Shown here: positions 3,001 to 54,200 of the stretch, one piece after another
How positions within the stretch are numbered: the first letter of the stretch is position 1
Layout of the letters: each line of letters opens with the position of its first letter
NCBI GenBank assembly: GCA_964016885.1
Contig: OZ024757.1
Coordinates: 1,240,001 to 1,304,000, forward strand
Direction of reading: 5' to 3'
DNA: 64,000 nt
Origin: Eledone cirrhosa
Taxonomy: Eukaryota
Translations under genes and position numbers: made by a program
Notes under the pieces: model-generated
What the model was told of the DNA's origin: nothing
The model's database searches: none
Seen by the model: the letters and a program-made list of their open reading frames with translations, nothing else

Positions 3001-6000
3001 GTTCCAGTCCACTGTGTACTTGAGCAAGACACTTTATTACAGGTTGTTCCAGTCCACTGTGTCCTTGAGCAAGACACTTTATTTCATGTTGCTCCAGTCC
3101 ACTCTGTCCTTGAGCAAGACACTTTATTTCGCATTACTCCAGTTCACTGTGTCCTTGAGCAAGACACTTTATTTCACATTGCTCCAGTCCACTGTGTCCT
3201 TAAGCAAGACACTTTATTTCACATTGCTCCAGTCCTCTGTGTCTCCTTGAGCAAGACACTTTATTTCATGTTGCTCCACTCCACTGTGTCCTTGAGCAAG
3301 ACACTTTATTTCACATTGCTCCAGTCCACTGTGTCCTTGAGCAAGACACTTTATTTCACATTGCTCCAGTTCACTGTGTCCTTGAGCAAGACACTTTATT
3401 TCACATTGATCCAGTCCTCTGTGTCTCCTTGAGCAAGACACTTTATTTCACATTGCTCCAGTTTACTGTGTCCTTAAACAAAACACTTTATTTCACATTT
3501 CTCCAATCTATTGTGTCCTTGAGCTAGACACTTTATTTCACGTTGCTCCAGTCCACTGTGTCCTTGAACAAGACACTTTATTTCAGGTGCTCCAGTCCAC
3601 TGTGTCCTTGAGCAAGACACTTTATTTCACATTGCTCCAGTCCACTGTGTCCTTGAGCAAGACACTTTATTTCATGTTGCTCCAGTCTACTGTGTCCTTG
3701 AGCAAGACACTTTATTTCATGTTGCTCCAGACCACTGTGTCCTTGAGCAAGACACTTTATTTCACATTGCTCCAGTCCTCTGTGTCTCCTTGAGCAAGAC
3801 ACTTTATTTCATGTTGCTCCACTCCACCGTGTCCTTGAGCAAGACACTTTATTTCACATTGCTCCAGTCCACTGTGTCTTGAGCAAGACACTTTATTTCA
3901 CATTGCTCCAGTTCACTGTGTCCTTGAGCAAGACACTTTATTTCACATTGATCCAGTCCTCTGTGTCTCCTTGAGCAAGACACTTTATTACACATTGCTC
4001 CAGTCCACTGTGTCCTTGAGCAAGACACTTTATTTCACGTTGTTCCAGTCCACTGTGTACTTGAGCAAGACACTTTATTACAGGTTGTTCCAGTCCACTG
4101 TGTCCTTGAGCAAGACACTTTATTTCATGTTGCTCCAGTCCACTCTGTCCTTGAGCAAGACACTTTATTTCGCATTACTCCAGTTCACTGTGTCCTTGAG
4201 CAAGACACTTTATTTCACATTGCTCCAGTCCACTGTGTCCTTAAGCAAGACACTTTATTTCATGTTGTTCCAGTCCACTGTGTCCTTGAGCAAGACACTT
4301 TATTTCATCTTGCTCCAGTCCACTGTGTCCTTGAGCAAGACACTTTATTTCGCATTGCTCCAGTTCACTGTGTCCTTGAGCAAGACACTTTATTCCATGT
4401 TGCTCCAGTCCACTGTGTCCTTGAGCAAGACACTTTATTTCGCATTGCTCCAGTCCACTGTGTACTTGAGCAAGACACTTTATTACAGGTTGTTCCAGTC
4501 CACTGTGTCCTTGAGCAAGACACTTTATTTCATGTTGCTCCAGTCCACTCTGTCCTTGAGCAGGACACTTTATTTCGCATTGCTCCAGTTCACTGTGTCC
4601 TTGAGCAAGACACTTTATTTCACATTGCTCCAGTTTACTGTGTCCTTAAACAAAACACTTTATTTCACATTTCTCCAATCTATTGTGTCCTTGAGCTAGA
4701 CACTTTATTTCAGGTTGCTCCAGTCCACTGTGTCCTTGAACAAGACACTTTATTTCAGGTTGCTCCAGTCCACTGTGTCCTTGAGCAAGACACTTTATTT
4801 CACATTGCTCCAGTCCACTGTGTCCTTGAGCAAGATACTTTATTTCACATTGCTCCAGTCCACTGTGTCCTTGAGCAAGACACTTTATTTTATGTTGCTC
4901 CAGTCCACTGTGTCCTTGAGCAAGATACTTTATTTCATGTTGCTCCAGTCCACTGTGTCCTTGAGCAAGACACTTTATTTCACGTTGCTCCACTCCACTG
5001 TGTCCTTAAGCAAGACACTTTATTACACATTGCTCCAGTCCACTGTGTCCTTGAGCAAGACACTTTATTTCACGTTGTTCCAGTCCACTGTGTACTTGAG
5101 CAAGACACTTTATTACAGGTTGTTCCAGTCCACTGTGTCCTTGAGCAAGACACTTTATTTCATGTTGCTCCAGTCCACTCTGTCCTTGAGCAAGACACTT
5201 TATTTCGCATTGCTCCAGTTCACTGTGTCCTTGAGCAAGACACTTTATTTCACATTGCTCCAGTCCACTGTGTCCTTAAGCAAGACACTTTATTTCACAT
5301 TGCTCCAGTCCTCTGTGTCTCCTTGAGCAAGACACTTTATTTCATGTTGCTCCACTCCACTGTGTCCTTGAGCAAGACACTTTATTTCACATTGCTCCAG
5401 TCCACTGTGTCCTTGAGCAAGACACTTTATTTCACATTGCTCCAGTTCACTGTGTCCTTGAGCAAGACACTTTATTTCACATTGATCCAGTCCTCTGTGT
5501 CTCCTTGAGCAAGACACTTTATTTCATGTTGCTCCAGTCCACTGTGTCCTTGAGCAAGACACTTTATTTCAGGTTGCTCCAGTCCACTGTGTCCTTGAGC
5601 AAGACACTTTATTTCACGTTGCTCCACTCCACTGTGTCCTTAAGCAAGACACTTTATTACACATTGCTCCAGTCCACTGTGTCCTTGAGCAAGACACTTT
5701 ATTTCACGTTGTTCCAGTCCACTGTGTACTTGAGCAAGACACTTTATTACAGGTTGTTCCAGTCCACTGTGTCCTTGAGCAAGACACTTTATTTCATGTT
5801 GCTCCAGTCCACTCTGTCCTTGAGCAAGACACTTTATTTCGCATTGCTCCAGTTCACTGTGTCCTTGAGCAAGACACTTTATTTCACATTGCTCCAGTCC
5901 ACTGTGTCCTTAAGCAAGACACTTTATTTCACATTGCTCCAGACCACTGTGTCCTTGACCAAGACACTTTATTTCACATTGCTCGAGTCCTCTGTGTCTC

Positions 6001-6262
6001 CTTGAGCAAGACACTTTATTTCATGTTGCTCCAGTCCACTGTGTCCTTGAGCAAGACACTTTATTTCACATTACTCCAGTCCTCTGTGTCTCCTTGAGCA
6101 AGACACTTTATTTCATGTTGCTCCAGTCCACTGTGTCCTTGAGCAAGACACTTTATTTCACATTGCTCCAGTTCACTGTGTCCTTGAGCAAGACACTTTA
6201 TTTCACATTGCTCCAGTCCTCTGTGTCTCCTTGAGCAAGACACTTTATTTCACGTTGCTCCA
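1..6262 (+). repeat. 45-bp tandem satellite (about 139 units, runs off the window start), consensus GTGTCCTTGAGCAAGACACTTTATTTCACATTGCTCCAGTCCACT
   Basis: Direct periodicity. The 15-aa repeating ORFs are by-products. The unit matches the core of SINE copies at 21885-21925 and 52298-52345. Confidence 0.98.
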
Positions 6263-6516
6263 ATCCCGGTTAAAATGAAGAATGTGTTTTACATGTTGTA
6301 ACTCAACTGGAACACTGACCTTCTCAAATCATGGAGACACGACAACAACAACAACTTCTTATATAAGCCATTGTTATATAATTTTGTTGTTATGTCACGT
6401 TAAGACCTAAATGTCCAGAAATGCTGTAATCACCAGAAATGGGTGACATATCCTGTCTTTTAATCTGGGTTTCCCTTCTCACCATGGAAATGGTAATTAT
6501 TTTGTCACTTCTTTTC

Positions 6517-13307: not shown

Positions 13308-16300
13308 TATCATCATCATCATCATCATCACCGTTTTACGTCCGTTCTTCCACGCTAGCATGGGTTAGACGGGTTGTCCTGTTGTGGGCAGTGTCTGGTC
13401 GGCTGACCATGCCTTGCTCATACAGGAACTGATCTGGCTTGATTTCTACAGCTGGATGCCCTTCCTAACACCAACCTCATTTACAGTGAGTGCTGGGTGC
13501 TTTTTCGTGGCGCCTACACGTCCACTTTACAGTGTGGGCTGGGTGCTTTTTTGCCGTGGCACCTCCACGACCACCTTGCGGTGGGGGGGGGGGCATATTG
13601 TTTATATGCTTCAGCATGTACCCATGGGAGGTCGGGTACCCTGTATTACTGCGTGACGCCAGAAGTCACGGTCGTGTGTCATTGACTTTGAGAGGTGTAG
13701 TTGGGTAAGGTCGGCTTTTATCACCTCATCCCAAGTCATCTTGGGTCTCCCCACTCCGCGGTTTCCATCAACTTCTAGTGCTCTGCACCTTTTTATGCAG
13801 CTGTCATCCTTCATACGCATCACATGTCCATACCAGCGTAACCGCCTCTCCTGCACGCAGCATTTGATTCCTCTTATGCTCAGTCTCTCTCTCAATTCAT
13901 TTATGCTTTGTCGTTCACGTATATTACTGTTACACATCCATCGGAGCATGCAGGCTTCGTTTCTCTCTAATCTACGTAAGTCTTCCACCTTCAGCGCCCA
14001 GGTCTCACTACCATGCAACATCGCTGTTCGGATACACGCATCATACAGTCTGCCTTTCATTCTGAGGGAGAAGCCTTTTGCAGCTAGCAGTGGTAGTAGT
14101 TCCCTAAACTTCTTCCATCCCGTTCTTACCCTAGTTATTGTACTTTCTGAGCACCCACCTCCGTTGCTAATTCGGTCACCTAGGTAGCAGAAGCTGTCTA
14201 CTGTTTCTACAGGGCCCTCCCAGAGATTGGTGGTACTTGTTTCCTGTGGCTGTTTGCTTGCTGTTTCAGCACAGCTGCTGCATGTGAATCCTACATTCTT
14301 AATTAAGCTTCCTGAGATCCCGCTACATCTCTTGTGTACCCATTGTTTGCATTTGGGGCAAAGAATGGAGTTCCTACCTACACCTTTCCTACATACTGAG
14401 CAAGGCCATTTCCCTGAGGGGATCTGGGTTCTGTTTTCTCGTCTACTTATAAGGACCTTAGTCTTTGTCATGTTGACTTTGAGGCCCTTTCTCTCTAGTC
14501 CCTGCTTCCAGGTTTGGAATTTATTCTCTAGTTCTACCATAGATTCAGCTATGAGTGCGAGGTCATCAGCATACAGGAGTTCCCATGGGCATCCGGTCTT
14601 AAACTCCTCCGTTATTGCCTGCAGGACTATGATGAACAGGAGAGGGCTAAGAACAGAGCCCTGGTGGACCCCAACCTGTACGCTAAATTCCTCGCTATAC
14701 TCATTGCCAATCCTAACTTTGCTGACTGCTCCCCTATACATGGCTTGTACCGCTTTCACAAGCCATTCATCTACTCCTAGTTTTCTAAGAGCCCACCAGA
14801 TTACTGCACGTGGAACTCTGTCAAAGGCTTTCTCAAGGTCGACAAATGCCAAGTAGAGTGGCTTACTTTTAGCTAGGTACTTTTCCTGTAATTGCCTCAC
14901 AAGGAAGAGCGCATCAGTGGTGCCTTTCCCTGGTACAAACCCAAATTGCATCTCGTCTATATTCACCCGGTCCCTAATCAGCTGTGCTATAACTCTTTCT
15001 GTTACTTTCATGACCTGGTCCATCAACTTTATACCTCTATAGTTTCCTCTATCTAGTGCATCGCCTTTACCTTTGTAGCAGTTGACAATGATGCTACTGC
15101 ACCAATCTTTTGGTATGGCCCCCTCTAGTATTACCTGGTTAACGATACGTGTGGTTATAGTGTGACCTACAGACCCAGATGCCTTCAGCATCTCGGCAGC
15201 TATACCCGATGGACCGGTTGCCTTCCCTATCTTCATATCTCTGATTGCCTTACTTACTACGCTGCCGCTGACTTGTACTGCTGGTCCCTCTATAGGGTCT
15301 ACGTGGGGTAGGGTCTCTTCTTCCCATGCATTCTCCTCATTTAGTAATCTATCATAATGACTCTTCCATGCATCTTTCTTCTCAGCACTTGTGAGGGCAA
15401 GCTCACCTTTATCATTCCGGATACACTTCTCTCCAATGACATCACAACTATCTCTGACACACTGCCTCGCAATCTTGAATACCTCCTGTTTCTGGTCCTC
15501 ACGTTGTAAAACATGCTTGAATTTTCTATCCTCTGCTTCCCTCCTAGCTAAGTATACTTGTCGCCTAGCTTCCCTCTTGGTCTCTATGTAATGTACCCTG
15601 CTCCCCCCGTTCTTCCATTCTTTCCATGCCTGTCTCTTGGCCTTGACTGCTTCATCTACCTTATTGTTCCACCACCAAGTCACTCTCCTCCTGCTTGAGG
15701 TCTTACTCCAGCCACAAACCTCATCCGTCGCCTCTAGTAAGTTATTTTTTAGGAACTCCCAGTTCTCTTCTACGTTAAATGTCTCTATCTGTTCTTCTTT
15801 ACTGTCGTAGGCGTTGAGTAAAATATCTTTAAATCTGTTACTGGTTGAGGGGACTTTCAGCTTCCAGATCTTTCTTCTCCAGGTTGGCCTCTGTTTCAGG
15901 GCTCGTCTAGTTCTGACCGTGAGGTCGCTGACAACTAAGCTATGTTGGGATGTACATTCCTCACTAGGGAAGGCTTTTGTGTTTACGACCGTCCATCTGT
16001 CACGTCCTCTGATGAGGATAAAATCTAACTGACTAGAGTGCTCCCCTGATCTATAGGTGATCAGGTGGTTGTCGGGTTTTTTAAAGTTTGTGTTACATAT
16101 CGACATGTCATTGGCGTCGCAGAATTCCTCATTCCTTGTGCCAACTCCATGGCCTCCATGTACTCTATTGAAGCCGTCGCAGTGTTTACCTACGTGTCCG
16201 TTAAAATCTCCTGCAATGATTAGGAAGTCCTTGTCGTCTGTTAGAGCAGTAGTGTGTATTAGGGACTCGTAAAACCTATCCTTAAGTTCGTCTGGCAGCC

Positions 16301-16622
16301 CCGATTGGGGTGCGTAAGCTGATATTATTGTGGTAATTGTCTTATTCAGGACTAGTCTGAGTTTAATGATTCTTGCATTTACCCTGTACACTGAGATTAC
16401 TTTATCTACCCACTTGTCAGCTAATAGTATACCTACACCACCCATCCCATCGTCATTTCCCACCCAGAAAAATTTGTAGCACTGGCTTTTTCCTACAAGG
16501 ACTCTAGCAGACCCTCCTCTCCATCTAGTCTCTTGCACACAGCATACATCAACTTCCTTTCGCTCTAGCATTTCTACGATTTCTCCTGCTCTTCCTTTCA
16601 TTGAGCCTACATTGATGGTACC
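13308..16622 (-). mobile_element. RTE-clade LINE, near full length, with (ATG)n 3' tail, flanked by (TA)n
   Basis: Single APE-RT ORF, 3' UTR 13330-13610, tail CATCATCAT at 13308-13330 on the + strand. Confidence 0.95.
13611..16622 (-). CDS. RTE ORF: APE endonuclease plus reverse transcriptase with an inserted PHD-like Cys/His finger (about 1003 aa open; native start not present)
   Basis: [83 protein letters not shown]...[13 protein letters not shown]. The N-terminal 80 aa or so of the listed ORF are read-through from (TA)n and the neighbouring PLE. Confidence 0.92.
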
Positions 16623-16737
<115 letters not shown>

Positions 16738-16902
16738 TATGGGAGGAGGTTATAGTTCACTTGAAGCATTGTGTAATGAGGTATAAACGTTTGAATATGT
16801 ATAATAAAGCCAAAACAATGCAGGTATGGACATAGAAAAAAGAATGCAATTGCAAAAGATATTGTTGACAATTCGTCTTTTACCTTAGATTTATTTGAAT
16901 GT

Positions 16903-16937
16903 CCTTAATTTTCGAGATAATATCTCTTCTTCAGGGG
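16903..16937 (-). ncRNA. Minimal hammerhead motif in the inverted pLTR
   Basis: Minus strand CCC-CUGAAGA-A-GAGAU[AUU]AUCUC-GAAA-AU-UA-AGG. Stem I is weak. Confidence 0.55.
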
Positions 16938-17024
16938 GAAATAAATGTCTCAAACCAGCGTTCTAACTAGCTTACCAAGCCATGCTGACAGGAAATAGTA
17001 TAGAGTATCTGTTCTATCTCTAAT

Positions 17025-18789
17025 GTCTCGAGACTAAAACATTCCGTATTTAACATCTTACGGAAACAAGAAGAAGATAGCCCCAAACCTCTCCAGGACA
17101 CAGCAACTCGCCCTGAAGAACCTACGGAATAGGGAACTTGTATACTTACCATCCGACAAAGGTAAAGAGTTTTGCGTCATCTCTCAAGCCACATACAATA
17201 ACCTAGCCTTTGAACACCTAAGCGACAATGAGTTATACACAGAGATCCCGGGCATGACTGCATCCCAGATCGAAAAATAGACCAACTCCATTTGGTTCGA
17301 TATCTGTAGGAGAAGACAACTCCCAAATAAAGTTAAGCTCAACTACACCACTAGAAATAGCAGACTGCCCACTTTCTACCACCTCATCAAGACCCACAAT
17401 AATAGTACTAAGACGCAAATAAGACCCATCGTCTCTAGCATAGAAGGACCCCTATACAAAATTTCCTGGCTCCTCTCCCAGGTCCTCAAGCCTCTACTCT
17501 CCACCTTTCCCGGGCATGTCAGTAGCTCCGACGAAGTTATACGTAGACTACACCAACTCCAGCCAGAACAACTTAAACTAAATAAATACGCCTTTAGCCT
17601 CGACGTTGTCTCCCTCTACACTACAGTCCCCGCTCATCCAGCTGTCGATTTATTGACGGCCTGCGTGGTCGCAGAGAACATCCACTGCTACGGCCTCCAC
17701 CCGACGGACATACACCAGCTTTTGTCCTTCACAGTAGACAACCCGTACTTCACCTTCCACCACCACACATACAGACAGACAACAGGATTACCCATGGGAT
17801 CCAGCCTATCGGGCCTGCTGGCCATCACCTACATGAACCAGCTAGAATACCGAGCCCTCAACACCTGCCATTCCCATGCCTTCTTCACCCGATATGTAGA
17901 TGACATACTCATCCTTACATCATCCCGTGAGGAGGCAGATAAAATATACACAACATTCTCCAGCATGGACGCCAGTATAAAGTTCAGCATGGAACACCCC
18001 GATGACCGCGGATCCCTATCCCTACTGGACTTCCAACTCAGGGTAACAGAGGAAGGCAACATCCACACTTGCTTCTATAAAAAAACCCGCCAGCAGGGAC
18101 CTGTTCGTACATTTCAGATCGGCCCTCCCACTCGGTGCCAAGTTCGGATACATAAGGAACGAACTGGCACGTATCCGGAACAAATGCACCGACGCCAGAG
18201 ACCGAGACACACACACCACACATTTCCTGGAAGTACTCAAACTGAACGGATACACGACATCCACCACAAACCGTGCCAGAAAGAACAGAGGACACCACAC
18301 ACTTGCTTCCTGAAGCTCCCACACTTCAGTGAAGAAACAACAACAGCCATCCGCAGAGCCATCAGACGAGAGGGACTAGATATCCAACTGGCCCACTCAG
18401 GTCTTTCTCTACGCGGACAGCTAACGAAAAGACACTCCACCAGACATGACAACTGCTGCAGACTAGCCAACTGCCCCATCAACGACACAGATCTATGCCA
18501 CCAGGCTTACGTCGTATACAGACTAGAGTGTGACAAATGCAACAACTTCTACGTAGGTAGCACCACCAGACCACTCCACATAAGAATAAAAGAACACCTC
18601 AATACTAACGCTTCCTCATTTTAGAAACACCTAGTTAAATGCAAAAACACCGACAAAACCATAACAGTTAGGATAGAAACTAAGGAAAGAAACCTCGGCA
18701 ATCTTAGAATTAAGGAAGCACTAATTATAGATAAAACACAACCACCAATCAATAATAGACTAGAACACAACACCCAATTTATAACCTGA
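17025..18789 (+). pseudogene. PLE RT plus GIY-YIG endonuclease, disrupted (TAG at 17278, frameshift near 18085, TAG at 18622)
   Basis: LPSDKGKEFCVI, RPIVSS, FSLDVVSLYT, GLPMGSSLSGLLA, RYVDD, VVYRLECDKCNNFYVGSTTRPLHIRIKEH. Confidence 0.92.
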
Positions 18790-19225
18790 TAGGGCTTCTA
18801 GCCCCATATTTACACACACACCCCACACACACACGCACGCACACACACACACGCACGCACACACACACACGCTTACACCTCCACTTATTCTCTCTCACAC
18901 ATACACACACAAAACCAGTTCTAGCACCAGATAACACTTACCCCCCACACTTACGAATAGACGTATCTTCTCACACTCACACACACACACTCACATACTT
19001 ACACCTTCATGCATTCTCCCACACACTTAAACAGGCATGTATATAAAATTAAAAAATTAAAAAAATTTAAAACAAAACCCAAAACAAACCCCTTTTAAAG
19101 GGAGACTACTCTTTGTCCACCTAATTTTAACTCTTTGAATTAGAGATAGAACAGATACTCTATACTATTTCCTGTCAGCATGGCTTAGTAAGCTAGTTAG
19201 AACGCTGGTTTGGGACATTTATTTC

Positions 19226-19260
19226 CCTCTGAAGAAGTGATATTATCTCGAAAATTAAGG
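19226..19260 (+). ncRNA. Minimal hammerhead motif in the 3' pLTR
   Basis: CCU-CUGAAGA-A-GUGAU[AUU]AUCUC-GAAA-AU-UA-AGG. The AAUU palindrome replaces stem III. Confidence 0.55.
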
Positions 19261-19378
19261 ACATTCAAATAAATCTAAGGTAAAAGACGAATTGTCAACA
19301 ATATCTTTTGCAATTGCATTCTTTTTTCTATGTCCATACCTGCATTGTTTTGGCTTTATTATACATATTCAAACGTTT

Positions 19379-19456
<78 letters not shown>

Positions 19457-19516
19457 AAGCAAATTATAAATGTAAACATGTAAGTATGTTTTTGAAACGG
19501 TGTGCGAGTTTGAAAA

Positions 19517-20203: not shown

Positions 20204-20276
<73 letters not shown>

Positions 20277-21003
20277 CTAATAGGACGAAAAAACGGGTCA
20301 GTACTATACGAACATGCCAGACAACAACACGACGGTAACATAGACAACATAGAAATTAGAATAATATCTAAACATAGAAATGACCCAGCAGATAGGCAAA
20401 TCAGAGAGGCCAGTGAAATAGAACTTAGAAGGCCAAGGCTAAACAGAAAGAATAAATGGAATAACAACAACACCCAAACAAACAACACTGACCTAGTATA
20501 AATAAATAAATAGATAAATAAATAAATAAATACATACACAAGCACAATAACAACAAACACATATAAACACACACTAGTAAAGATAGAATACATTAACCAA
20601 TACACAGTCACCCAATCACGAACACGCATCAAACAAAACACTATACACACACGCAAACGCATGCGCAAAGAAGACAAAATAAAATAAACAAATAAATAAA
20701 TATATAAACAGACTAAATAAAGATGGCGTAGAAAATCCAATGTAACGGGAGGAAACAATAACACCACTGACGATATTGCAGATGTGCAACGAAAGAACTT
20801 TGATAAACTATATATATGTGTTTGTGTCTATATTGTATCTGTATTATTTTTTACCGTTGGTCAGTCAATGGCAACATTGAGGACCGAATAAATTAGATTA
20901 CCGATATAAAAGACACAGAAGCGAAAACCAACCAAACAGTGAGTGTGTTCTATGATTAATTCTGGCAATATTACACAAATATGACCCTCCCCAAGTATAA
21001 CAA
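20277..21003 (+). mobile_element. PLE 3' fragment: end of GIY-YIG domain plus pLTR; second pLTR copy at about 57800-58100
   Basis: SVLYEHARQQH...IEIRIISKHRNDPADRQIREASEIELRRPRLNRKNKW. 20710-21003 is closely similar to 57800-58099. Confidence 0.75.
20763..20804 (+). ncRNA. Hammerhead motif, slightly degenerate
   Basis: ACCA-CUGACGA-U-AUUGC[..]GCAAC-GAAA-GAAC-UU-UGAU. Confidence 0.55.
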
Positions 21004-21040: not shown

Positions 21041-21130
21041 TCCTCGACTACGTAGTTTCGTGGCATAAACAAAAACAATACATCATAAAGATATAGAGTC
21101 CTTGCGAGGTCTGCCGACTTATCAAGAGGA
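21041..21130 (-). ncRNA. Hammerhead, U3:A8 variant (family of 26134-27035)
   Basis: Minus strand UCCUC-UUGAUAA-GUCGGCA...UGCCAC-GAAA-CUACGUAG-UC-GAGGA. Confidence 0.8.
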
Positions 21131-21464
21131 TACCTCATTTTACTAGTCTCAAGAACGCGTCTACACGACGTGAGAAAGAATCCCAAAAGGCGGAGGGGGA
21201 GATAGTCACGCGATATAACGGTCGAGAAACAGAGCTAAGCCTCTTATAACCCCGAAGAAAATACCACGGAGGCGGAGGGGGTATTTATATCGAAGCCGTA
21301 GAAGAGGTGGTGAAGGAGGCGAGAAGTATGAGTAATGGAAGCTTTCCAGCAGTCCCTACACTTCAAAGATTGCTCGACCAGAGGGAGTTATTAACAATAT
21401 ATTTAGAAACACACAGATGTATATGTGTGTGTCCGCATGTATCTGTGTGTTTCTAAATATATTG

Positions 21465-22090: not shown

Positions 22091-22289
22091 ATATATATAT
22101 ATAAAGTGTTTCCGTGGGAAAGGTAAAGGAAAAGAGAGTGCAGACTACAGAAAAGAGAGTGCAGACTACAGAGCTTTTTAGTTATGTAATAAACAACATA
22201 AGATAATTATTCCATTTACCAAAGGTAAAGAGAGACGAGCCTGACACAGACGTCTGCCTTCGGTCGTCATAATGAAAATTATATATATA

Positions 22290-22430
22290 TAACGAAGGAA
22301 GTGTGGTAAGGAACCAGGTGGTTCATAACGCATCAGAGTACTTTGGGTAGTAGAGTGGGTAATAGGGAAAGGTTCAGGACCCCGACGGCAGAGCTCAAGC
22401 CGTTTCGACGGCAATTTCTGGACTAAATTA
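22290..22430 (-). mobile_element. Short pLTR end fragment of the Naiad family at 27082-31855 (3' half of its hammerhead)
   Basis: GACCCCGACGGCAGAGCTCAAGCCGTTTCGACGGC matches 27096-27130. Confidence 0.8.
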
Positions 22431-22752
22431 ATTTTTTTTAAATATATATATATATATACATATATATAAATGTAATCTGATATAAACAGAACTGCAGACG
22501 CTAAGCTTTTAGAAAATATCATATATTTTCACTAGCTCTGACACTTTGGCAGGTGAACAGTGAGCATTGGTGTCTGCAGTTCTGTTTACATGCCAAACAA
22601 GAGCAAGAATGAAGGGTTCATTCTACTGACATGGCTATAAAGAGGCTGCTTGCATAATTGCAAACGAATCGAATATTATTATTAATATTCGAAAAACTCA
22701 GATTACATTTATTGTATTCAGCCATGTAGAGCGATAAATTCATTTTTTTTTG

Positions 22753-22947: not shown

Positions 22948-23023
<76 letters not shown>

Positions 23024-23063
23024 TACAAATATTAATAAAATAGATGTTCTTTTGATCAATTAA

Positions 23064-23116
23064 ATTTTATTATACATATTTCAGAGGTACAACAGTACGT
23101 CCTCATCAGACAAAAT
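23064..23116 (-). ncRNA. Minimal hammerhead (inverted arm)
   Basis: Reverse complement of 23227-23279. Confidence 0.8.
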
Positions 23117-23226
23117 ATATGACATACCCTGAGATGTTAAATGGTTAAGATTTAATCAAGGTAGTACCTTGATTAAATATTAAATCTTAACCATTTAACA
23201 TCTCAGGGTATGTCATGTATCATTAT

Positions 23227-23279
23227 ATTTTGTCTGATGAGGACGTACTGTTGTACCTCTGAAATATGTATAATAAAAT
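23227..23279 (+). ncRNA. Minimal hammerhead
   Basis: AUUUUGU-CUGAUGA-GGACGUAC[UGUU]GUACCUCU-GAAA-UAUGUA-UA-AUAAAAU. Confidence 0.8.
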
Positions 23280-23397
23280 TTAATTCATCAAAAGAACATC
23301 TATTTTATTAATATTTGTATTTTAATATTAATAACTCTGGAAAATATTTTTCTGTAAAACTCATTCTTTGATGTACTCATTGAATTTTGTTTAATTC

Positions 23398-23476
<79 letters not shown>

Positions 23477-23479
23477 GTA

Positions 23480-24230
23480 ATAGTAATATTTATATTTATA
23501 TATGTTTGATATAACTATAAATATGGCGGGTAGTACTAAGTACGAGCCGGTTACCGGTATGACAAAAGGATCAATGCAAATTTTCAAGTGTTTTACAGAG
23601 CCGAGATACAAAGTGTTAAAACGGTCAAATTTTAGTTTAGAACATTTATTAGTTGACAATTGTTTCTTCCAGAGGGAAGTCTGGAATCATCGGAGCATAA
23701 GGAATGTCGAAACATGTAACTAAAGTCCCAGTCATTTAGAACATTTAGGGTACATAATTGTTGTTAGTGTCATAGGTAACATGTGGAGAGTCAGGAGTTA
23801 ACAAGATGTTCTGCTTGAATGAACACAATTATAGGCAGCACTGGTTGGAAGTGTAAGAGGTATAAGTAGAAAGCACAAGCAAAAAAATCACAAGCTAAAA
23901 AAACAGGCAAAAAAGTTATAAGCAAGGAAAATTGGTGTACAATGCAGGAATCAATACAGTCAATATGGCATGTCTTATTGATTGACTGTATTGACTCCTG
24001 CATTGTACACCAATTTCCCTTGCTTATAACTTTTATGAGGACGTACTGAAAAAACAACATTGTACCTCTGAAATATATATAATAAAGTATATATTTTGAT
24101 TATGAGAATATTTTTCATTTGTTAATATTTTGAATAATATTAAAAACTTCAGAAAACACACTGTTGAGTGCTTCTAATCTATTGTGAAATTGTATTCATT
24201 GAGTATTCAACGAACCATACTAATCTTTGG

Positions 24231-24232
<2 letters not shown>
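23480..24232. mobile_element. Composite PLE-end fragments: hairpin 23912-24034 followed by a 5'-clipped hammerhead and pLTR tail of the 60051-60256 family
   Basis: ATGAGGACGTACTG...GTACCTCTGAAATATATATAATAAA at 24035-24086. Tail TTGAGTGCTTCTAATCTATTGT is shared with 60187-60208. Confidence 0.75.
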
Positions 24233-24292
<60 letters not shown>

Positions 24293-26066: not shown

Positions 26067-26372
26067 AATTGTTTCTACGTTAGGAACAAGGCCAGCAATT
26101 ACCCAGTGCATTACTGGTACTTTATATATATATACAATAATGAGAAATACACAGATACATGCGAATACATACTATACATGCATATACACATATATATATT
26201 TCACAAGTGTGTGAAATTGTGTGGTGCCAACCTTAACCGTTGTTGCTCTATGATTAAGAGGGACAAAATAATCTGAATGAATTAAATTGACTCAATATCA
26301 GAGCTATATAATACATTATAAAGAAAGAAGAAACACTGGACATAAATAAATAAATACCTATTATTTCTTCAC

Positions 26373-26466
26373 ATTCTCGACTGTACAGTTACGTGGCTAC
26401 TTTGCAAAACTCCTATATCATAGAGATGTAGTATTCTTGTGAGGTTTGCCAACTTATCAAGAGAAT
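26373..26466 (-). ncRNA. Hammerhead, U3:A8 variant, probably inactivated (GAAA changed to GUAA)
   Basis: Reverse complement of 26877-26970 with a core substitution at 26391. Confidence 0.65.
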
Positions 26467-26876
26467 ACCTCATTTAAAGTTTCAAAACACGTCCGCAACG
26501 CGTGAGAGCGAATCTCGGCAAGGCGAAGGGGGAATTTATCACGTGATACAGCGGTCAAGAAACAGAGCTAAGTCCCTTATAGCCATGAGAAATGCCACAA
26601 ATGGCGGAGAGGGCATTAATACCTAGGCTACAGACGAGGTGGCTAGAAGTGTAAATAGTGTTAGTTTGAAAGCAGTCACTATACTTCCGTGGTTACTCTA
26701 CCGTAGGGAGTTATAGACAATAATGAGAAATACACAGATTCATGCGCTATAAGGATACATGGCTATAAGGGACTTAGCTCTGTTTCTTGACTGCTGTATC
26801 ACGTGATAAATTCCCCCTCCACCTTCCTGGGATTCTCTCACGCGTTGCGGACGTGTTTTGAAACTTTAAATGAGGT

Positions 26877-26970
26877 ATTCTCTTGATAAGCTGGCAAACC
26901 TCACAAGAATACTACATCTCTATGATATAGGAGTTTTGCAAAGTAGCCGCGAAACTGTACAGTCGAGAAT
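26877..26970 (+). ncRNA. Hammerhead, U3:A8 variant
   Basis: AUUCUC-UUGAUAA-GC...GC-GAAA-CUGUACAG-UC-GAGAAU. Confidence 0.8.
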
Positions 26971-27029
26971 GTGAGGAAATAATAAGTATTTATTTATTTA
27001 TGTCCAGTGTTTCTTCTTTCTTTTTAATG

Positions 27030-27086
<57 letters not shown>

Positions 27087-27096
27087 AACCAGTAAG

Positions 27097-27190
27097 ACCC
27101 CGACAGCTGAGCTCAAGCCGTTTCGACGGCTAATTCTGGACTAAATGAAAATTTATCCTGGTATTTAAATAGCCGATCTTCTCAAGGGGT
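27097..27190 (-). ncRNA. Hammerhead, U3:A8 variant, GUC triplet (inverted arm)
   Basis: Minus strand ACCCC-UUGAGAA-GAUCGGCUA...UAGCCGUC-GAAA-CGGCUUGAGCUCAGCUG-UC-GGGGU. Confidence 0.82.
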
Positions 27191-28393
27191 AATTCCATAT
27201 ATGGTCAAAGTGATTGTCAAAAATCAGTAGTAATTCTGTGGTTGCAAATTAGTAGGGGAGATGGTGGCTAAACCTGCTAGTAGGAGAAAGAGGGGAGGGG
27301 GTGGAGTAGACCCAATCAAGCGTTGGTAGTGCCAGCTACAGCTGGGCATGAGGTCATAGAAGACACAGGGGAGGGGGAGGGGGAGGAAGTCGGAACGGTA
27401 GGTAGAACAATGGGGGGTAGAAATATATAGGAAAGAAAAAATACTGAGAGTGAAGAAAAGCAAATAAGTGTAAAGAAAAAAGTAAAGTGAATTAAATTCT
27501 ACGACATAGGTCTCTAGCTATTGTTAGGCTAGAATAAATAAATAAAGAAAGAAAGAAAGAAAGAAGTAAAGAAAGAAATAAAGAAATAACGAAATAAGTA
27601 AAAGAACTAGGTGGGACGGAATAGGCAAGGACCCTTTTAAGAGGTATAAGTACGTAAATGATACGGTGACGGGTCAACAAAAGGGGCCAAAATACTAAAG
27701 AGACTACCACGAAATAAACAATAAAGGTTTCCATCCCGGGCACAATGCCAGCAACCACCCAGTGCAGCAAAGTGAACTAGTACGAGATAATAATTCTGAG
27801 TCCCGAGAAAAATATATACTAATGCTAACTCTAAAAGATCTAAAACAAGCTACATGAAAGTTCGTACGAAGTAAAGGTAGAATACGGAAAAATAAATTCA
27901 GAATCCACCCCGCCCAAAAGAAAAGCGAAGAAAGAAATACTGAAACGAAAAAATAAGGCATAAGTGCCACTAAGAAATATAGAGGGCACAGAGAATAGTG
28001 GGAGCGGTCGGAAAAAGGGGACAAGTATCCGGGGTCTAAACCAACTGCTATAAAGGGCGGAGTCCGCCAAATCTATCATAGACTAGGGGAGGGGGTGGGG
28101 GTACTAAGGCTACAAGGGGCCAAAGGGCAGCCTCGGGTGGGCGAGAAAAGACGCCGACAAAGGAGAAGAGCTGGGGTAGAAGGACTAAGGAGAGAGGGGG
28201 GAAGGAAATAAAGGAAGCGATAAAAGAATACAAAGAAGATCTTACGTCTGCCCTGGCAAGCAGGGGTTACCCATTGCAAAATCGGCAAGTGGGGTGTTAT
28301 AGCCCTGGTCTACCCCCCCCCCCCTGGTCATTATGGGGTTTGAGGGCGAGGTAAGTCCTACGCAATCTATGTTTACATGCAGTAACCAGCACC

Positions 28394-30556
28394 ATGCGAA
28401 AACACAACATTGACTTCTCTACCAAGAACATCCCAATCCCACCGAAAAAACTTTACCTTCGGATGCTCACGCAAAAAATCGATCTATTTGCGAAAAGACT
28501 TAGATGGAGAACTTTTTTCTATGACAGATATTGCGACAACCAAGACTTCGGCACCAAGGAGAGATTCGGATTTATTACCTACAAATCTCCGCCCCTGAAC
28601 CCCTTGCTCGCACCCTTCGAGAATGACCTCTTCCAACTGGTCAAGAACATTAAATTTAAACCCAGACACAACCGATTCCTACAAAAACTCCGTAGCAACT
28701 TAACAGAGTATGATAACACAAATGACATCATGGTGCATTCGGATAAAACTGGGAACCTATACTTTGTCAACCCTGACAGATACCACACACTGATCAGGAG
28801 CAGCCTAAACTCCACCTATAAAAAGGCCAACCACTCTTGCATCGAGGACATAAATCGAGATGGACAACAAATCACCTCCAGCCTCGGGGTCGCCGACCGC
28901 ACGGAACCTCTAGACCCACAGACACCATACTTCACACTGAAGGACCATAAATCCGATTTTGACCGTAAACCCTCTATCAGGCTTATTAACCCAACGAAGT
29001 CCGACATAGGGAGAATCAGCAAAAAAATCCTAGACCGCGTGATACCAAAAGTCAAGCAACACACCCGACTTAGCCTATGGATCAACACCCAGGAAGTAAT
29101 CTCCTGGTTCAGCAATATGGAGGATAAACGAGAAACTAAATTCATACAGTTCGACATAGAGAGCTACTATGCTTCAATCACCTTACCGCTACTTACTGCC
29201 GCCTTGGACTTCGCCGAAACACTTGTGCCCATCACCGACCAGGAAAGAAAAATCATCCTCCACGCCAGGAAGACAGTCTTACTCTTTGACGACTCTAAAT
29301 GGATAAAAAGAGCTCCCGACTCACCCTTCGACGTCAGCATGGGCGCCACGGATTCGGCGGAGGTCACAGATCTTATAGGATTATTCCTAATAGCCAAACT
29401 CACTGATATGTTTCCTGCATTCGGTGGTGGATTGTACCGTGATGATGGGCTCCTTACCCTTAAAGGGTACAACCCCAGTAGTACAGATCGGGTCCGGAAA
29501 CAATTAATCAGATTCTTCCGCGACTGGGGATTTAAAATAACCCTACAAACGTCCCTGACCCGAGTAAACTTCCTGGACGTGACCCTTGACTTCGAAAACG
29601 ACCTGTACTACCCATACAGGAAACCTAATGACAATCTGCACTACATCCACCGCCGATCAAACCATCCTAGGAACATCACAAACAACCTGGTCAAAAACAT
29701 CTCCCTCCGCATATCCCGTTTGTCAGCTAATGAGCGGATATTCGATAAACATGCGCCTTATTACAACCAGGCCCTCAAGCGGAGTGGTTTCCGGGAGGAA
29801 ATATCCTACTGTCCAGCTCCCATTAGCGGAACCAGCAGGAGACACCGCCGCTCACGCAATGTAACATGGTTCAATCCTCCCCACAACGCAGAGGTGACAA
29901 CTCCCATCGGGAAACTATTCTTTAGGCTCATTGAAAAACACTTCCCATTACAACACCGCTACCACAACATAATTAACAAAAATACCATCAAACTCTCTTA
30001 CAGCACTACACCAAACTTCGCACAAAACATCGTCTCCTCTAACAACAAAAAACTCAACCCCGATGGCAGAAATAACCTAAATAGCAGTGGAGAACCGACC
30101 AGGAGGTGTAACTGCCCGGATAGATCTATTTGCCCACTCGACAATGGATGCAGAGACCGTAATGTGATCTACCAGTGCAACGTGAAGACGGATACCTCCA
30201 ACAAAGCCTATATAGGACTTACCGCATGTGACTTCAAGACCCGGCTATACCAACATAGACATACCTTCCGAAACCCGGCCCGGCGTCACGCCACTACACT
30301 TTCGGGCCACATATGGGACCTCAAGGACAACAACATCACCTATGATCTCACTTGGAGATTACTGTCCAGAGCCAATTCTTACACGGGAGGACGCCGTCCG
30401 TGCAATTTATGCTCGGAGGAAACTTTACAAATGCTGTTTTCGACGGACCAACTCCTAAACAAGAAAGATGAACTGGTTACTGCATGTAAACATAGATTGC
30501 GTAGGACTTACCTCGCCCTCAAACCCCATAATGACCAGGGGGGGGGGGGGGGGTAG
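28394..30556 (+). CDS. PLE polyprotein, 720 aa: reverse transcriptase plus C-terminal GIY-YIG endonuclease (Naiad-like)
   Basis: FSTKNIPIP start, SDKTGN, RLINPTKSDIG, FDIESYY, VSMGATDSAEV, LYRDD, NFLDV, WFNPP, CNCPDRSICPLDNGC, VIYQC..AYIG, CNLC.EE. ATG in CACCATG context. Confidence 0.93.
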   Translation: MRKHNIDFSTKNIPIPPKKLYLRMLTQKIDLFAKRLRWRTFFYDRYCDNQDFGTKERFGFITYKSPPLNPLLAPFENDLFQLVKNIKFKPRHNRFLQKLRSNLTEYDNTNDIMVHSDKTGNLYFVNPDRYHTLIRSSLNSTYKKANHSCIEDINRDGQQITSSLGVADRTEPLDPQTPYFTLKDHKSDFDRKPSIRLINPTKSDIGRISKKILDRVIPKVKQHTRLSLWINTQEVISWFSNMEDKRETKFIQFDIESYYASITLPLLTAALDFAETLVPITDQERKIILHARKTVLLFDDSKWIKRAPDSPFDVSMGATDSAEVTDLIGLFLIAKLTDMFPAFGGGLYRDDGLLTLKGYNPSSTDRVRKQLIRFFRDWGFKITLQTSLTRVNFLDVTLDFENDLYYPYRKPNDNLHYIHRRSNHPRNITNNLVKNISLRISRLSANERIFDKHAPYYNQALKRSGFREEISYCPAPISGTSRRHRRSRNVTWFNPPHNAEVTTPIGKLFFRLIEKHFPLQHRYHNIINKNTIKLSYSTTPNFAQNIVSSNNKKLNPDGRNNLNSSGEPTRRCNCPDRSICPLDNGCRDRNVIYQCNVKTDTSNKAYIGLTACDFKTRLYQHRHTFRNPARRHATTLSGHIWDLKDNNITYDLTWRLLSRANSYTGGRRPCNLCSEETLQMLFSTDQLLNKKDELVTACKHRLRRTYLALKPHNDQGGGGG

Positions 30557-31666
30557 ACCAGGGCTATAACACCCCACTTGCCGATTTTGCAATGGGTAAC
30601 CCCTGCTTGCCAGGGCAGACGTAAGATCTTCTTTGTATTCTTTTATCGCTTCCTTTATTTCCTTCCCCCCTCTCTCCTTAGTCCTTCTACCCCAGCTCTT
30701 CTCCTTTGTCGGCGTCTTTTCTCGCCCACCCGAGGCTGCCCTTTGGCCCCTTGTAGCCTTAGTACCCCCACCCCCTCCCCTAGTCTATGATAGATTTGGC
30801 GGACTCCGCCCTTTATAGCAGTTGGTTTAGACCCCGGATACTTGTCCCCTTTTTCCGACCGCTCCCACTATTCTCTGTGCCCTCTATATTTCTTAGTGGC
30901 ACTTATGCCTTATTTTTTCGTTTCAGTATTTCTTTCTTCGCTTTTCTTTTGGGCGGGGTGGATTCTGAATTTATTTTTCCGTATTCTACCTTTACTTCGT
31001 ACGAACTTTCATGTAGCTTGTTTTAGATCTTTTAGAGTTAGCATTAGTATATATTTTTCTCGGGACTCAGAATTATTATCTCGTACTAGTTCACTTTGCT
31101 GCACTGGGTGGTTGCTGGCATTGTGCCCGGGATGGAAACCTTTATTGTTTATTTCGTGGTAGTCTCTTTAGTATTTTGGCCCCTTTTGTTGACCCGTCAC
31201 CGTATCATTTACGTACTTATACCTCTTAAAAGGGTCCTTGCCTATTCCGTCCCACCTAGTTCTTTTACTTATTTCGTTATTTCTTTATTTCTTTCTTTAC
31301 TTCTTTCTTTCTTTCTTTCTTTATTTATTTATTCTAGCCTAACAATAGCTAGAGACCTATGTCGTAGAATTTAATTCACTTTACTTTTTTCTTTACACTT
31401 ATTTGCTTTTCTTCACTCTCAGTATTTTTTCTTTCCTATATATTTCTACCCCCCATTGTTCTACCTACCGTTCCGACTCCCCCCCCCCCTGTATCTTCTT
31501 TGACCTCATGCCCAGCTGTAGCTGGCACTACCAACGCTTGATTGGGTCTACTCCACCCCCTCCCCTCTTTCTCCTACTGGCAGGTTTAGCCACCATCTCC
31601 CCTACTAATTTGCAACCACAGAATTACTACTGATTTTTGACAATCACTTTGACCATATATGGAATT

Positions 31667-31760
31667 ACCCCTTGAGAAGATCGGCTATTTAAATACCAGG
31701 ATAAATTTTCATTTAGTCCAGAATTAGCCGTCGAAACGGCTTGAGCTCAGCTGTTGGGGT
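31667..31760 (+). ncRNA. Hammerhead, U3:A8 variant, GUU triplet (3' pLTR)
   Basis: ACCCC-UUGAGAA-GAUCGGCUA...UAGCCGUC-GAAA-CGGCUUGAGCUCAGCUG-UU-GGGGU. Confidence 0.8.
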
Positions 31761-31850
31761 CTTACTGGTTCCTATTACCCACTCTACTACCTCAAGTATT
31801 GAGTACTTTGGTGCGTTATGGTCCACCTGGTTCCTTACCACATTTCCTTC

Positions 31851-31892
<42 letters not shown>

Positions 31893-33883: not shown

Positions 33884-34338
33884 GTATATGTATATATATA
33901 TGTATATATATATATATGTATATATATGTATAAATATATATGTATAAACAATTAAGTTAAAAATGTACATCTACATATGCATACTGAAATACTAGTGTGC
34001 ATATGAATACACACACGTATACAACCAGTAAAGCAACCAGTGAAGGACTTGTTACATCTGCATATGTATACGTGTGTGTATTCATATGCACACTAGTATT
34101 TCAGTATGCATATGTAGATGTACATTTTTAACTTAATTGTTTAAGCGTCAGTCATACAAAAGTGAGTTACAAACGAAGCGAAATTTAATTTCGTTTCGTT
34201 ATTTGTTTTTATCGTCTCCGCTGAACCGGTGCGTACTCACACTCTATGCAAATTAGTCTGCCCACTACTAATTTTCATAGAAAAAGCATATAACGATATG
34301 TGCTTTTACAATTCTCCAGAAGGGCCGGTAGATAGGTA

Positions 34339-34383
34339 AATATTGCTGATGAGTTGTAACAACAACGAAACTAGTTCAATATT
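34339..34383 (+). ncRNA. Canonical minimal hammerhead ribozyme
   Basis: AAUAUUG-CUGAUGA-GUUGU[AACA]ACAAC-GAAA-CUAG-UU-CAAUAUU: 7-bp stem I, 5-bp stem II, ACUAGU palindrome. Confidence 0.9.
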
Positions 34384-34805
34384 CCTTGTCTGGCTTTCTG
34401 GAGAATAGAGGGAAGGTGTTCCCTCGAAAACCAGTATGACTCTAAAAACCGGTTTGTCTGTGTGTTTACATACAAAATAGCTGGGTTGCTCACAGTAAAG
34501 CAACCAGTGAAGGACTTGTTACATCTACATATGTATACGTGTGTGTATTCATATGCACACTAGTATTTCAGTATGCATATGTAGATGTACATTTTTAACT
34601 TAATTGTTTAAGCGTCAGTCATACAAAAGTGAGTTACAAACGAAGCGAAATTTAATTTCGTTTCGTTATTTGTTTTTATCGTCTCCGCTGAACCGGTGCG
34701 TACTCACACTCTATGCAAATTAGTCTGCCCACTACTAATTTTCATAGAAAAAGCATATAACGATATGTGCTTTTACAATTCTCCAGAAGGGCCGGTAGAT
34801 AGGTA

Positions 34806-34850
34806 AATATTGCTGATGAGTTGTAACAACAACGAAACTAGTTCAATATT
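34806..34850 (+). ncRNA. Canonical minimal hammerhead ribozyme (second unit)
   Basis: Identical to 34339-34383, 467 nt downstream. Confidence 0.9.
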
Positions 34851-35170
34851 CCTTGTCTGGCTTTCTGGAGAATAGAGGGAAGGTGTTCCCTCGAAAACCA
34901 GTATGACTCTAAAAACCGGTTTGTCTGTGTGTTTACATACAAAATAGCTGGGTTGCTCACAGTAAAGCAACCAGTGAAGGACTTGTTACATCTACATATG
35001 TATACGTGTGTGTATTCATATGCACACTAGTATTTCAGTATGCATATGTAGATGTACATTTTTAACTTAATTGTTTAAGCGTCAGTCATACAAAAGTGAG
35101 TTACAAACGAAACGAAATTTAATTTCGTTTCGTTATTTGTTTTTATATATGTATATTTATATATGTATAT

Positions 35171-35499: not shown

Positions 35500-36045
35500 C
35501 AGACAGCTGGTGAAGTTAACGTACGGCTGAGTAATTCACAAACACGTGTAGCCGTAATGTAGTTGTCACTGTGTGTAACAGGACCTGGAGTCTGTTATTA
35601 ATTACGGGTACAACTTGTAGTTATTTTACCTGCTGAGTTGACTAAGTGTCTTGCTCAAGGACACAGTGAACTGGAGCAATGTGAAATAAAGTGTCTTGTT
35701 CAAGGACACAGTGGACTGGAACAATGTGAAATAAAGTGTCTTGCTTAAGGACACAGTGGACTGGAGCAATGTGAAATAAAGTGTCTTGTTCAAGGACACA
35801 GTGGACTGGAGCAACGTGAAATAAAGTGTCTTGTTCAAGGACACAATGGACTGGAGCAATGTGAAATAAAGTGTCTTGTTCAAGGACACAATGGACTGGA
35901 GCAATGTGAAATAAAGTGTCTTGTTCAAGGACACAATGGACTGGAGCAATGTGAAATAAAGTGTCTTGTTCAAGGACAAAACACATAACTGGAAATTGAA
36001 ACCACGATTTTAAGAACGTGAGTGAAACATTCTAACACTTTCCCA
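35500..36045 (-). mobile_element. CORE-like SINE whose core is amplified in situ to about 7.5 x 45-bp units (35643-35978)
   Basis: Degenerate tRNA head at 35985-36045, units matching the 1-6262 satellite, tail downstream. Confidence 0.82.
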
Positions 36046-53083: not shown

Positions 53084-53663
53084 CCCACTCTCCAGGGCGT
53101 CAAATTAATAAACATTCGTTGTACTGCCTCTCTGTTTTGTTCCTGTTCAAATTTTTCCATTATATATATAATGGAAAAATTTCTTGTAAATAAACATTCA
53201 CTTCCATCCTGACGTCACTAGCCCCGTTTTTTCCTCATGTGCTTTTTCATAAATACACATGAAGGCGAACTAGCCAGTTTTAGAATTTCCTTTTTCGGAT
53301 TATATTACTGTGAGAGCCCTGGTTTCTGTTGAGCTCTGCTGATGAATGAAATCCAACCGTGACCATCTCCACTAAAAGTTTTCATGAAATAGTCTTTTAA
53401 GACTATACAGAGCATTTGATGTTATTCCAAATTGAAGGATAAGTGTTTCAAACTTTATTTTATCATGAGTTAAAGGTCTATAGATTTTTCCCTGGATTTT
53501 ACTAAATTCTGTGGATGAATTTATATCCTGATTCTCTTTTGAGATGAGTTTGAGTTATTTTTCCTAAATCTTTCGTTAACTACTTTTCCCATCTTGACGT
53601 TATAATCGCATATATGTTATAAAATGCCGTTAGCTTCTTGCTAAAACAATCTCTATACCTCTC

Positions 53664-53731
<68 letters not shown>

Positions 53732-54029
53732 ATGTATGTATGTATATGCGTATATTCATATGCACACCCACACATACATACATACATACATCCACCCACC
53801 CACACACACATACACCCATACCTACATACACCCATACTTACATACACACCCATACATATATACACACATACACACATACCCACACATACATACATACACA
53901 CACCCATACATAGTAAAAGTGTTAAAACAATTAAACAAAATTCAAAGTTTGAAAGTCACAGCTGGTGTGTGTGTGTGTGTGTGTGTGCATATACACACAC
54001 ACACACACGCACGCACACACACATATATC

Positions 54030-54196
54030 TATAACAAAGGAGTTGTGGTCAGGAACCAGATGGACTATAACGCACCAGAGTACACAAAATAGGAAAAAGT
54101 ATGTCACCGACGGCAGAGCTCAAGCCGTTTCGACGGCTATTTCTATAATAGCCGTCGAAACGGCTTGAGCTCTGCCGTCGGGGTCATACTTTTTCC

Positions 54197-54200
<4 letters not shown>
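54030..54200. mobile_element. Tiny fold-back relic of the Naiad pLTR (palindrome 54089-54199 built from the hammerhead 3' half)
   Basis: CCGACGGCAGAGCTCAAGCCGTTTCGACGGCTATT / AATAGCCGTCGAAACGGCTTGAGCTCTGCCGTCGG. Confidence 0.85.

Follow-up and report, generated by a model that had tools for sequence, protein, structure and literature searches.

The window analyzed here is a 64,000-nucleotide (nt) stretch of the Eledone cirrhosa assembly GCA_964016885.1 (contig OZ024757.1, positions 1,240,001 to 1,304,000, forward strand; all coordinates below count from its first letter). It carries a Penelope-like element (PLE) of the Hydra clade whose open reading frame (ORF) is intact and whose two inverted arms each end in a type I hammerhead motif with an uncommon core, a U3:A8 pair in place of C3:G8. 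The element, its parts and its relics are as follows.

27082..28389, minus strand: left arm, an inverted, 5'-truncated copy of the element's 3' end, with (TA)n at its short end
27097..27190, minus strand: hammerhead, type I, U3:A8; U3 at 27185; predicted to cut after a GUC triplet, between 27102 and 27101
28394..30556, plus strand: open 720-aa ORF with reverse transcriptase (RT) and C-terminal GIY-YIG domains, Hydra clade of PLEs
30557..31666, plus strand: pyrimidine-rich 3' untranslated stretch of about 1.1 kb, long for the clade
31667..31760, plus strand: hammerhead, type I, U3:A8; core 31672-31678, stem II of 2 bp, a U bulge and 6 bp, stem III 31736-31754, GUU triplet, predicted cut after 31755
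31742..31749, plus strand: palindrome UGAGCUCA in loop III, which could permit a two-molecule duplex
31776..31856, plus strand: tail of about 80 nt, in one arm only, with (TA)n at the long end; also in the relics at 22280-22431 and 54023-54144
31781..31807, plus strand: Hydra-clade hairpin ACUC-UACUACCUCAAGUA-UU-GAGU-ACU, 6-8 nt after the short end, outer pair A-U
22280..22431, minus strand: tailed relic 3' end of a sister subfamily, 84% identical to 31708-31864, without the 5' core strand
54023..54199, no single strand: short back-to-back relic with inverted arms and a tail on one side, without the 5' core strand

The layout is that of a standard PLE as described in PMC8557442, with a sense copy, an inverted truncated 5' copy, a tail at one end and flanking (TA)n. 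The inverted repeat (27082-28389 / 30473-31775) is 98.6% identical over 1312 nt, its arms differing by four substitutions and a few gaps in G/C runs. Both arms are thus one inverted-repeat sequence and count as a single observation rather than as independent evidence for what they contain. The inverted and sense copies join 4 nt upstream of the ATG, so that the sense copy lacks an upstream sense pseudo-long terminal repeat (pLTR).

The original prediction assigned this pLTR to a Naiad, an identity that the domain order refutes. Naiads have an N-terminal GIY-YIG domain, DKG changed to DKA and a CxC motif between endonuclease and RT, and are described in PMC8557442 as being without canonical hammerheads. 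In the 720-aa ORF, YRDD (residue 348) precedes GIY-YIG (591-608), DKT stands at 117 instead of DKA, the only CxC belongs to a CxCx5C linker after the RT, and a full three-stem hammerhead is found in both arms. A true hammerhead in a Naiad pLTR would be the first for that clade, and the features that fit such an identity, namely (TA)n insertion, the inverted arm and the tail, are general to PLEs; we consider it scarcely credible. The Hydra clade, by contrast, is defined by a C-terminal GIY-YIG domain, RWK, DKT, CxCX5C, CxxC and CxH around conserved E and N residues, and insertion into (TA)n (Craig et al., 2021; PMC8557442). Here a single ORF encodes the RT followed by GIY-YIG, with RLRWR at 35-39 (RWK with K changed to R), SDKTG at 116 (DKT 117-119), FIQFDI at 250, CNCPDRSIC (CxCx5C) at 572, VIYQ..YIG at 591-608, CNLC (CxxC) at 670 and CKH (CxH) at 698, and (TA)n lies at both ends of the element. 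No CX2-5CxxC finger is present in the ORF. Among 7994 scored candidates, 1992 homologues were found at E<=0.001, and these retain the clade motifs. A Pfam search of the ORF matched no family, and eight pattern matches in viral contigs included no relative. The assignment is based on motifs and homologues, together with a comparison by eye in which published Hydra ORFs resemble this one. We conclude that the element is an ORF-intact Hydra-clade PLE, and likely a young one.

The motif itself, ACCCC-UUGAGAA-GAUCGGCUA(37-nt loop)UAGCCGUC-GAAA-CGGCU-UGAGCUC-AGCUG-UH-GGGGU, has a type I hammerhead layout. Positions 3 and 8 of a hammerhead pair in the active fold, so that U:A here stands in for C:G, and cleavage falls after H17. 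The copy at 31667-31760(+) ends in UU and the one at 27097-27190(-), otherwise the same, in UC. Both have the N3-UGA-N-N8-A/GAAA/UH core with complementary positions 3 and 8, G10.1-C11.1, three helices and an open stem I; stem III has 6 bp and a 7-nt loop, and stem I is predicted to run on past a 6-nt bulge, with no tertiary contact identified between this bulge and loop II. In a type I descriptor scan the hammerheads of both arms score 18, against a maximum of 13 in 20 locally shuffled windows, and in a relaxed scan shuffles yield 0.05 U:A matches per window at a score of at least 13. Chance origin of the motif is therefore rejected. These results bear out the central claim of the original prediction, that the Penelope pLTR hammerhead has both the U3:A8 core and a complete stem III in each arm, and the palindrome that it placed in the loop is indeed there. 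It had named a canonical CUGANGA core as the finding that would tell against it; searching both strands of 28390-31860 gave none. Rfam hammerhead models did not match the motif (E<=10), and nothing relevant was returned on 31560-31850. For the whole window, the Rfam matches listed (150 of 238) comprise low-complexity microRNA noise and just two C3:G8 HH9 matches.

Variation within the family was read from four public runs (X1, X2, X6 and X7) aligned to 28330-31830, using 40 of 336 variant rows. No RNA run figured among the 21 runs listed, which carries no information on expression. The core is unchanged in contig pieces of three runs from two studies (X2 piece 16, X6 piece 24, X7 piece 31), and the two differences in the X6 piece are explained by positions 31752 and 31755. 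C accounts for 65%, 79%, 100% and 100% of summed contig depth at 31752 across the four runs, and for 97-100% at 31755. Since C is the family majority at 31752, the G-U pair of stem III is a minority letter of this copy; a G-U to G-C exchange as compensation is rejected, the change being one-sided and G-C the majority state. Loose ends in X1 and X2 before 31703, reading AAAA-GUUCGGCUA and ACAA-GUUCGGCUA, represent a sister subfamily, in which the free position 7 is changed and A6, A8 and A9 are kept, position 3 lying outside the visible part. X1 and X2 contigs also enter (TA)n behind 31775. In X1 the last bin is covered tens of times more deeply than the ORF, a pattern compatible with numerous short 3'-end relics, although such depth does not measure copy number. 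We also observe that X1 and X7 contigs join 28388 to 29869 or 30345; other copies may share the inversion breakpoint with different sense starts, or the joints may be an alignment artefact of the inverted arm. The relics near 22380 and at 54088-54199, which had been offered as consistent with the helix, do have CGGC/GCCG in stem III. Their fifth pair is U.U, they begin inside loop II, and the UUGAGAA strand is missing, which makes them uninformative on the core; as support for it they are rejected.

In contexts of 121-151 nt the hammerhead is the minimum-energy fold of the left (GUC) arm, the GUU arm gaining an extra junction-closing pair, and its helices have pair probabilities of 0.5-1.0. 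A competing hairpin, AGCCGU-CGAA-ACGGCU, takes up to 0.24 of the ensemble. With flanks included and pair span limited to 150 nt, stem I reaches 0.83-0.96 in the left arm and 0.03-0.31 in the right. The fold is thus predicted to be competent as a monomer in a context-dependent way, and the hammerhead would cut weakly after GUC or GUU.

The U3:A8 core itself is already known. Natural U3-A8 cores have been described, with earlier in vitro activity cited alongside (Perreault et al., 2011; PMC3088659), and Schistosoma has about 1,300 U3-A8 against about 2,000 C3-G8 minimal hammerheads, linked to Cercyon PLEs (Cervera and De la Pena, 2014; PMC4209133). Within the Hydra clade the core is uncommon. 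All 26 Hydra rows in File S2 of PMC8557442 start with CUGA and none is U3:A8, the authors' descriptors being modelled on the canonical core. Similarly, of 77 metagenome loci encoding relatives of the element, 52 have a sense-strand motif outside the ORF, and the distinct motifs comprise 49 C3:G8 and two U3:A8. Twelve further loci yielded motifs in ten, all C3:G8. These counts come from a relaxed sense-strand scan outside the ORF that admits only C:G or U:A cores; stricter scans of the 77 loci, from which no counts were taken, overlooked motifs with short stems and returned antisense noise rich in G-U. The description of the core as rare holds among Hydra elements (0 of 26; 2 of 51 distinct) and needs qualifying for PLEs at large, for which U3-A8 is in print (PMC4209133). 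The two U3:A8 motifs (L050:2103 and L066:1938) have ordinary short stems. Beyond A15.1-U16.1, stem III has 2-3 pairs in the metagenome relatives as against 5 in this element. None of the published tables compared contains a Hydra element that combines U3:A8 with a full stem III and a long, bulged stem II, nor the clade-wide hairpin described below. A separate observation is that L078-L089, Hydra-type PLEs with hammerheads, lie in contigs filed as bacterial metagenome-assembled genomes, probably through contamination from a host animal.

Other hammerheads in the window place this core in context. Five U3:A8 sites in three families and eight C3:G8 sites in four were found by scanning, and a fifth C3:G8 family (16935(-) and 19229(+)) was recognized by eye, giving three U3:A8 and five C3:G8 families. 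The UUGAUAA family (21125(-)/26883(+)) and the UUGAAAA motif (20061(+)) on which the original prediction drew are both present, and with three of eight families in one window it is plausible that U3:A8 is common in this lineage. That the three families are unrelated is doubtful, since two of them share a bulged GGC/GCC stem II. In both the element and the 21125/26883 family, stem II consists of two pairs, a pyrimidine bulge and GGC/GCC, with a long loop II, a GUC triplet and a downstream Hydra-type hairpin, and the second stem II pair covaries among window copies (A-U at 31672, U-A at 21125, C-G at 26883). This RNA architecture suggests that the 21125/26883 family is likely a related Hydra-type family. 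Its short back-to-back element (26305-27038 and 21041-21418) contains no ORF remnant that we could find, and the minus-strand copy near 26400 has GUAA for GAAA and a broken core.

The hammerhead at 20061(+) is minimal, with a palindromic CCGG and a damaged stem I of two clean pairs followed by a mismatch. About 200 nt past it, beyond a (TA)n run, lies a short frame (20270-20490(+)) that we take to resemble a PLE endonuclease C-terminus. The C3:G8 family at 58246, 60057, 23109 and 23234 is joined through inverted arms to a Hydra endonuclease remnant (59600-60069(-)), so this genome's Hydra elements include both core types. This second Hydra-type family (58099-60351; inverted arms 58141-58252 / 60051-60162; canonical CUGAUGA hammerheads) has relatives at 22973-23501 and 24035-24289. 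At 16638-19482, in (TA)n at the start of a long interspersed nuclear element (LINE) ORF, sits a PLE with inverted arms, RT and GIY-YIG (17281-18624, frameshifted) and minimal CUGAAGA hammerheads at 16935(-) and 19229(+). Two further canonical type I hammerheads were observed: one at 53333-53413(+), CUGAUGA, in which loop II is long, stem III has 7 bp and no Hydra hairpin is seen behind the motif, and one in each unit (34339, 34806) of a retrozyme-like tandem 467-nt repeat at 34026-35146, whose Rfam HH9 match falls below the gathering score.

Behind the ribozyme the element's tail folds as the hairpin at 31781-31807, an isolated 40-nt piece favoring another register. Across the clade the motif reads GCUC-[Y..R]-U(U/C/A)-GAGC-RCU and lies 68-106 nt after the hammerhead core. 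Among loci with 120 nt or more downstream, 36 of 43 have it, as do 40 of all 54 examined; it appears twice in 20 loci by script count, and in 0.6% of shuffles. The 89 loci contain it 100 times on the sense strand versus 9 times on the antisense strand. The inner bulge pair, left free by the search pattern, is either C-G (53 times) or U-A (32 times) in 85 of 85 distinct instances, a count inflated by related copies. In three of four two-copy loci with a (TA)n end, that end lies 6-7 nt before a hairpin, and the fourth (L025) has a variant motif missed by the pattern. The hairpin sequence also occurs within the published Hydra-2_Amil consensus, and variants follow the hammerheads at 60057 and 54536 and those of the 26883 family. 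Individually, the second Hydra-type family has ACUC..GAGU-GCU at 60168, 6 nt past its short end; the UUGAUAA-family tail has GCUC-UGAUA-UU-GAGU; and at 54330-54545(-) the C3:G8 hammerhead (54536) is accompanied by a Hydra hairpin (54436) and, about 60 nt later, by a (TA)n end. A literature search covering journals outside subscription found no description of this hairpin, and the words "hairpin" and "stem-loop" are absent from the main text of PMC8557442. Its sequence conservation and placement suggest that it is likely a signal for the start of reverse transcription. A Poseidon PLE initiates reverse transcription on uncut RNA in an AC-rich stem-loop, at two internal positions delimiting the tail (Frangieh et al., 2024; PMC11167929).

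Taken together, these observations support, with a probability of roughly 0.7, a reading in which the element is a likely young Hydra PLE in (TA)n with an inverted truncated 5' copy, each arm ending in a U3:A8 hammerhead predicted to fold as a monomer and to cut weakly. Transcripts of a tandem copy would have their 5' end trimmed by the upstream ribozyme, and the RNA serving as template would retain an intact 3' ribozyme. Since the genomic ends are located about 20 and about 100 nt past the predicted cut, the copied RNA was presumably not cut at the 3' ribozyme; a slow or protein-gated ribozyme would suit such an uncut template. The RT would likely dock on the hairpin and initiate 6-8 nt upstream of it, the first of two conserved hairpins giving the short end and the second the tailed end. 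More tentatively, and with somewhat less than even confidence, we propose a two-part 3' RNA module of Hydra PLEs, in which a deliberately slow hammerhead is combined with one or two RT-bound bulged hairpins (GCUC..UH-GAGC-RCU) and copying starts 6-8 nt upstream. In this element slowness would come from U3:A8, the competing hairpin and the dimer-capable loop, and would keep the template uncut. If true, the module would act throughout the clade as the recognition signal for initiating internally, accounting for both ends and the tail.

Several observations weigh against the main reading. The strictly active fold accounts for 0.18 of the ensemble in the left arm and 0.03 in the right, stem I falls to 0.00-0.06 when global folding includes 100-200 nt of upstream flank, and fold z-scores are weak (-0.3 to -1.3). 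The sense arm has a minority GUU triplet private to that arm. The sense copy (28390-31856) is about 3.5 kb, whereas Hydra elements are generally below 3 kb (PMC8557442), a tendency that is not diagnostic. The relatedness of the 26883 family is drawn from RNA architecture, with no ORF remnant to accompany it, and a second hairpin is not visible in the window. Finally, in pairwise mutagenesis of one type III hammerhead only a G:C swap rescued the 3-8 pair (PMC9901934), so that U3:A8 may be slow.

This last result, in which U:A failed to rescue, also favors a reading in which the fold is nearly inactive alone and persists either as a ribozyme assisted by protein or as a fold that the element's own protein binds. 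For the Anolis Poseidon hammerhead, cleavage requires its protein, and catalytic mutants leave in vitro insertion unaffected (PMC11167929); metazoan PLE hammerheads have low activity (PMC4209133); and here, as noted, long sequence context disfavors the hammerhead fold. We regard this as possible, at about one chance in three, given that all core positions and 3-8 complementarity are retained across runs and families and that stem III has the length needed for a monomer, as in an efficiently self-cutting fungal PLE hammerhead (PMC4209133). Cleavage by two RNAs paired through the loop III palindrome GAGCUC, the mode proposed for minimal and most animal PLE hammerheads (PMC4209133), would fit the presence of the palindrome in this copy and in relics, and for the 19 nt at 31736-31754 a 16-bp homodimer is predicted at -26.3 kcal/mol versus -4.9 for the single hairpin. 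The 6-bp stem with its 7-nt loop nevertheless forms intramolecularly with a probability of 0.75-0.96 in short context, and the arms are oppositely oriented, leaving a single sense copy per transcript. Dimer cleavage therefore appears unlikely, and a monomer that cuts weakly remains the preferred account of the ribozyme.

A different question is whether U3:A8 arose separately in three unrelated families under a pressure acting across the host, for instance AT bias or the loss of CpG. The three-in-eight share of window families and the different, minimal design at 20061 speak for this, as does a careful RT tree of Hydra relatives (47 rows, six near-duplicates left out), which needs two core changes and places L050 and L066 as sisters on weak support (94/55); a quick tree of the RT region needed three. 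An AU test nevertheless leaves a single origin of the three U3:A8 proteins tested tenable (p=0.64, no rejection; the free search missed the better tree). Separate origins also fit poorly with the bulged GGC/GCC stem II, long loop II, GUC and Hydra hairpin shared by two of the three families, and with the AT-rich Hydra family at 58246/60057 in the same window, which retains C3:G8. When the DNA of the three families was aligned, the cores were in register for the 5' part only. We judge separate origins improbable; the pairing of U3:A8 with a long bulged stem II has likely been inherited within a single Hydra sub-lineage of this host, not invented three times.

By itself the U3:A8 core matters little, and its practical point is one of detection: descriptors restricted to CUGANGA and the Rfam models overlook such ribozymes, so that counts of PLE families without hammerheads may be too high. 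This copy also offers a natural test of monomer cleavage by U3:A8 with a full stem III. The hairpin carries more weight than the core: covarying, set a fixed distance from the genomic ends and beside an intact ORF, it makes the choice of internal start sites by a PLE RT directly testable. Elsewhere in the window, a long open LINE-type ORF with apurinic/apyrimidinic endonuclease, RT and PHD finger lies at 13611-16904(-), and a large 45-nt tandem satellite with long open frames at 1-6270 has a dispersed inverted copy at 35644-35981.

Compared with known systems, the element is closest to Hydra-clade members such as Hydra-1_Obim, Hydra-1_Ajap and Penelope-13_HM (PMC8557442), with which it shares domain order, RW[KR], DKT, CxCx5C, CxxC/CxH, the (TA)n target, the inverted 5'-truncated copy and a type I hammerhead near the 3' end. 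It differs in having U3:A8 rather than C3:G8, a 6-bp stem III with a 7-nt loop rather than about 4 bp with 1-3 nt, a bulged stem II with a 37-nt loop, a 1.1-kb 3' untranslated region and an 80-nt tail. The U3-A8 minimal hammerheads of Cercyon in Schistosoma mansoni (PMC4209133) likewise are type I, reside in the pLTR, have a long stem II and a 5-bp stem I, and display the same core covariation; they lack a real stem III and need a dimer, whereas this element, from another PLE clade, has a full one. A large helix III able to fold as a monomer is shared with fungal and protist PLE hammerheads, whose elements, unlike this one, are endonuclease-deficient and telomere-associated, and a bulged helix II nucleotide with a palindromic helix III insert is shared with the Drosophila virilis Penelope hammerhead; the sections of PMC4209133 used here report no U3-A8 for these fungal, protist and D. 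virilis ribozymes. The Anolis Poseidon PAc AC-rich stem-loop (PMC11167929) also has two ends bounding an optional tail, downstream of a hammerhead and beside a stem-loop. In that case RT initiates inside a stem-loop lying within one element's ORF; the putative Hydra start hairpin, by contrast, is bulged, conserved in sequence, positioned 6-8 nt downstream of the ends and found clade-wide.

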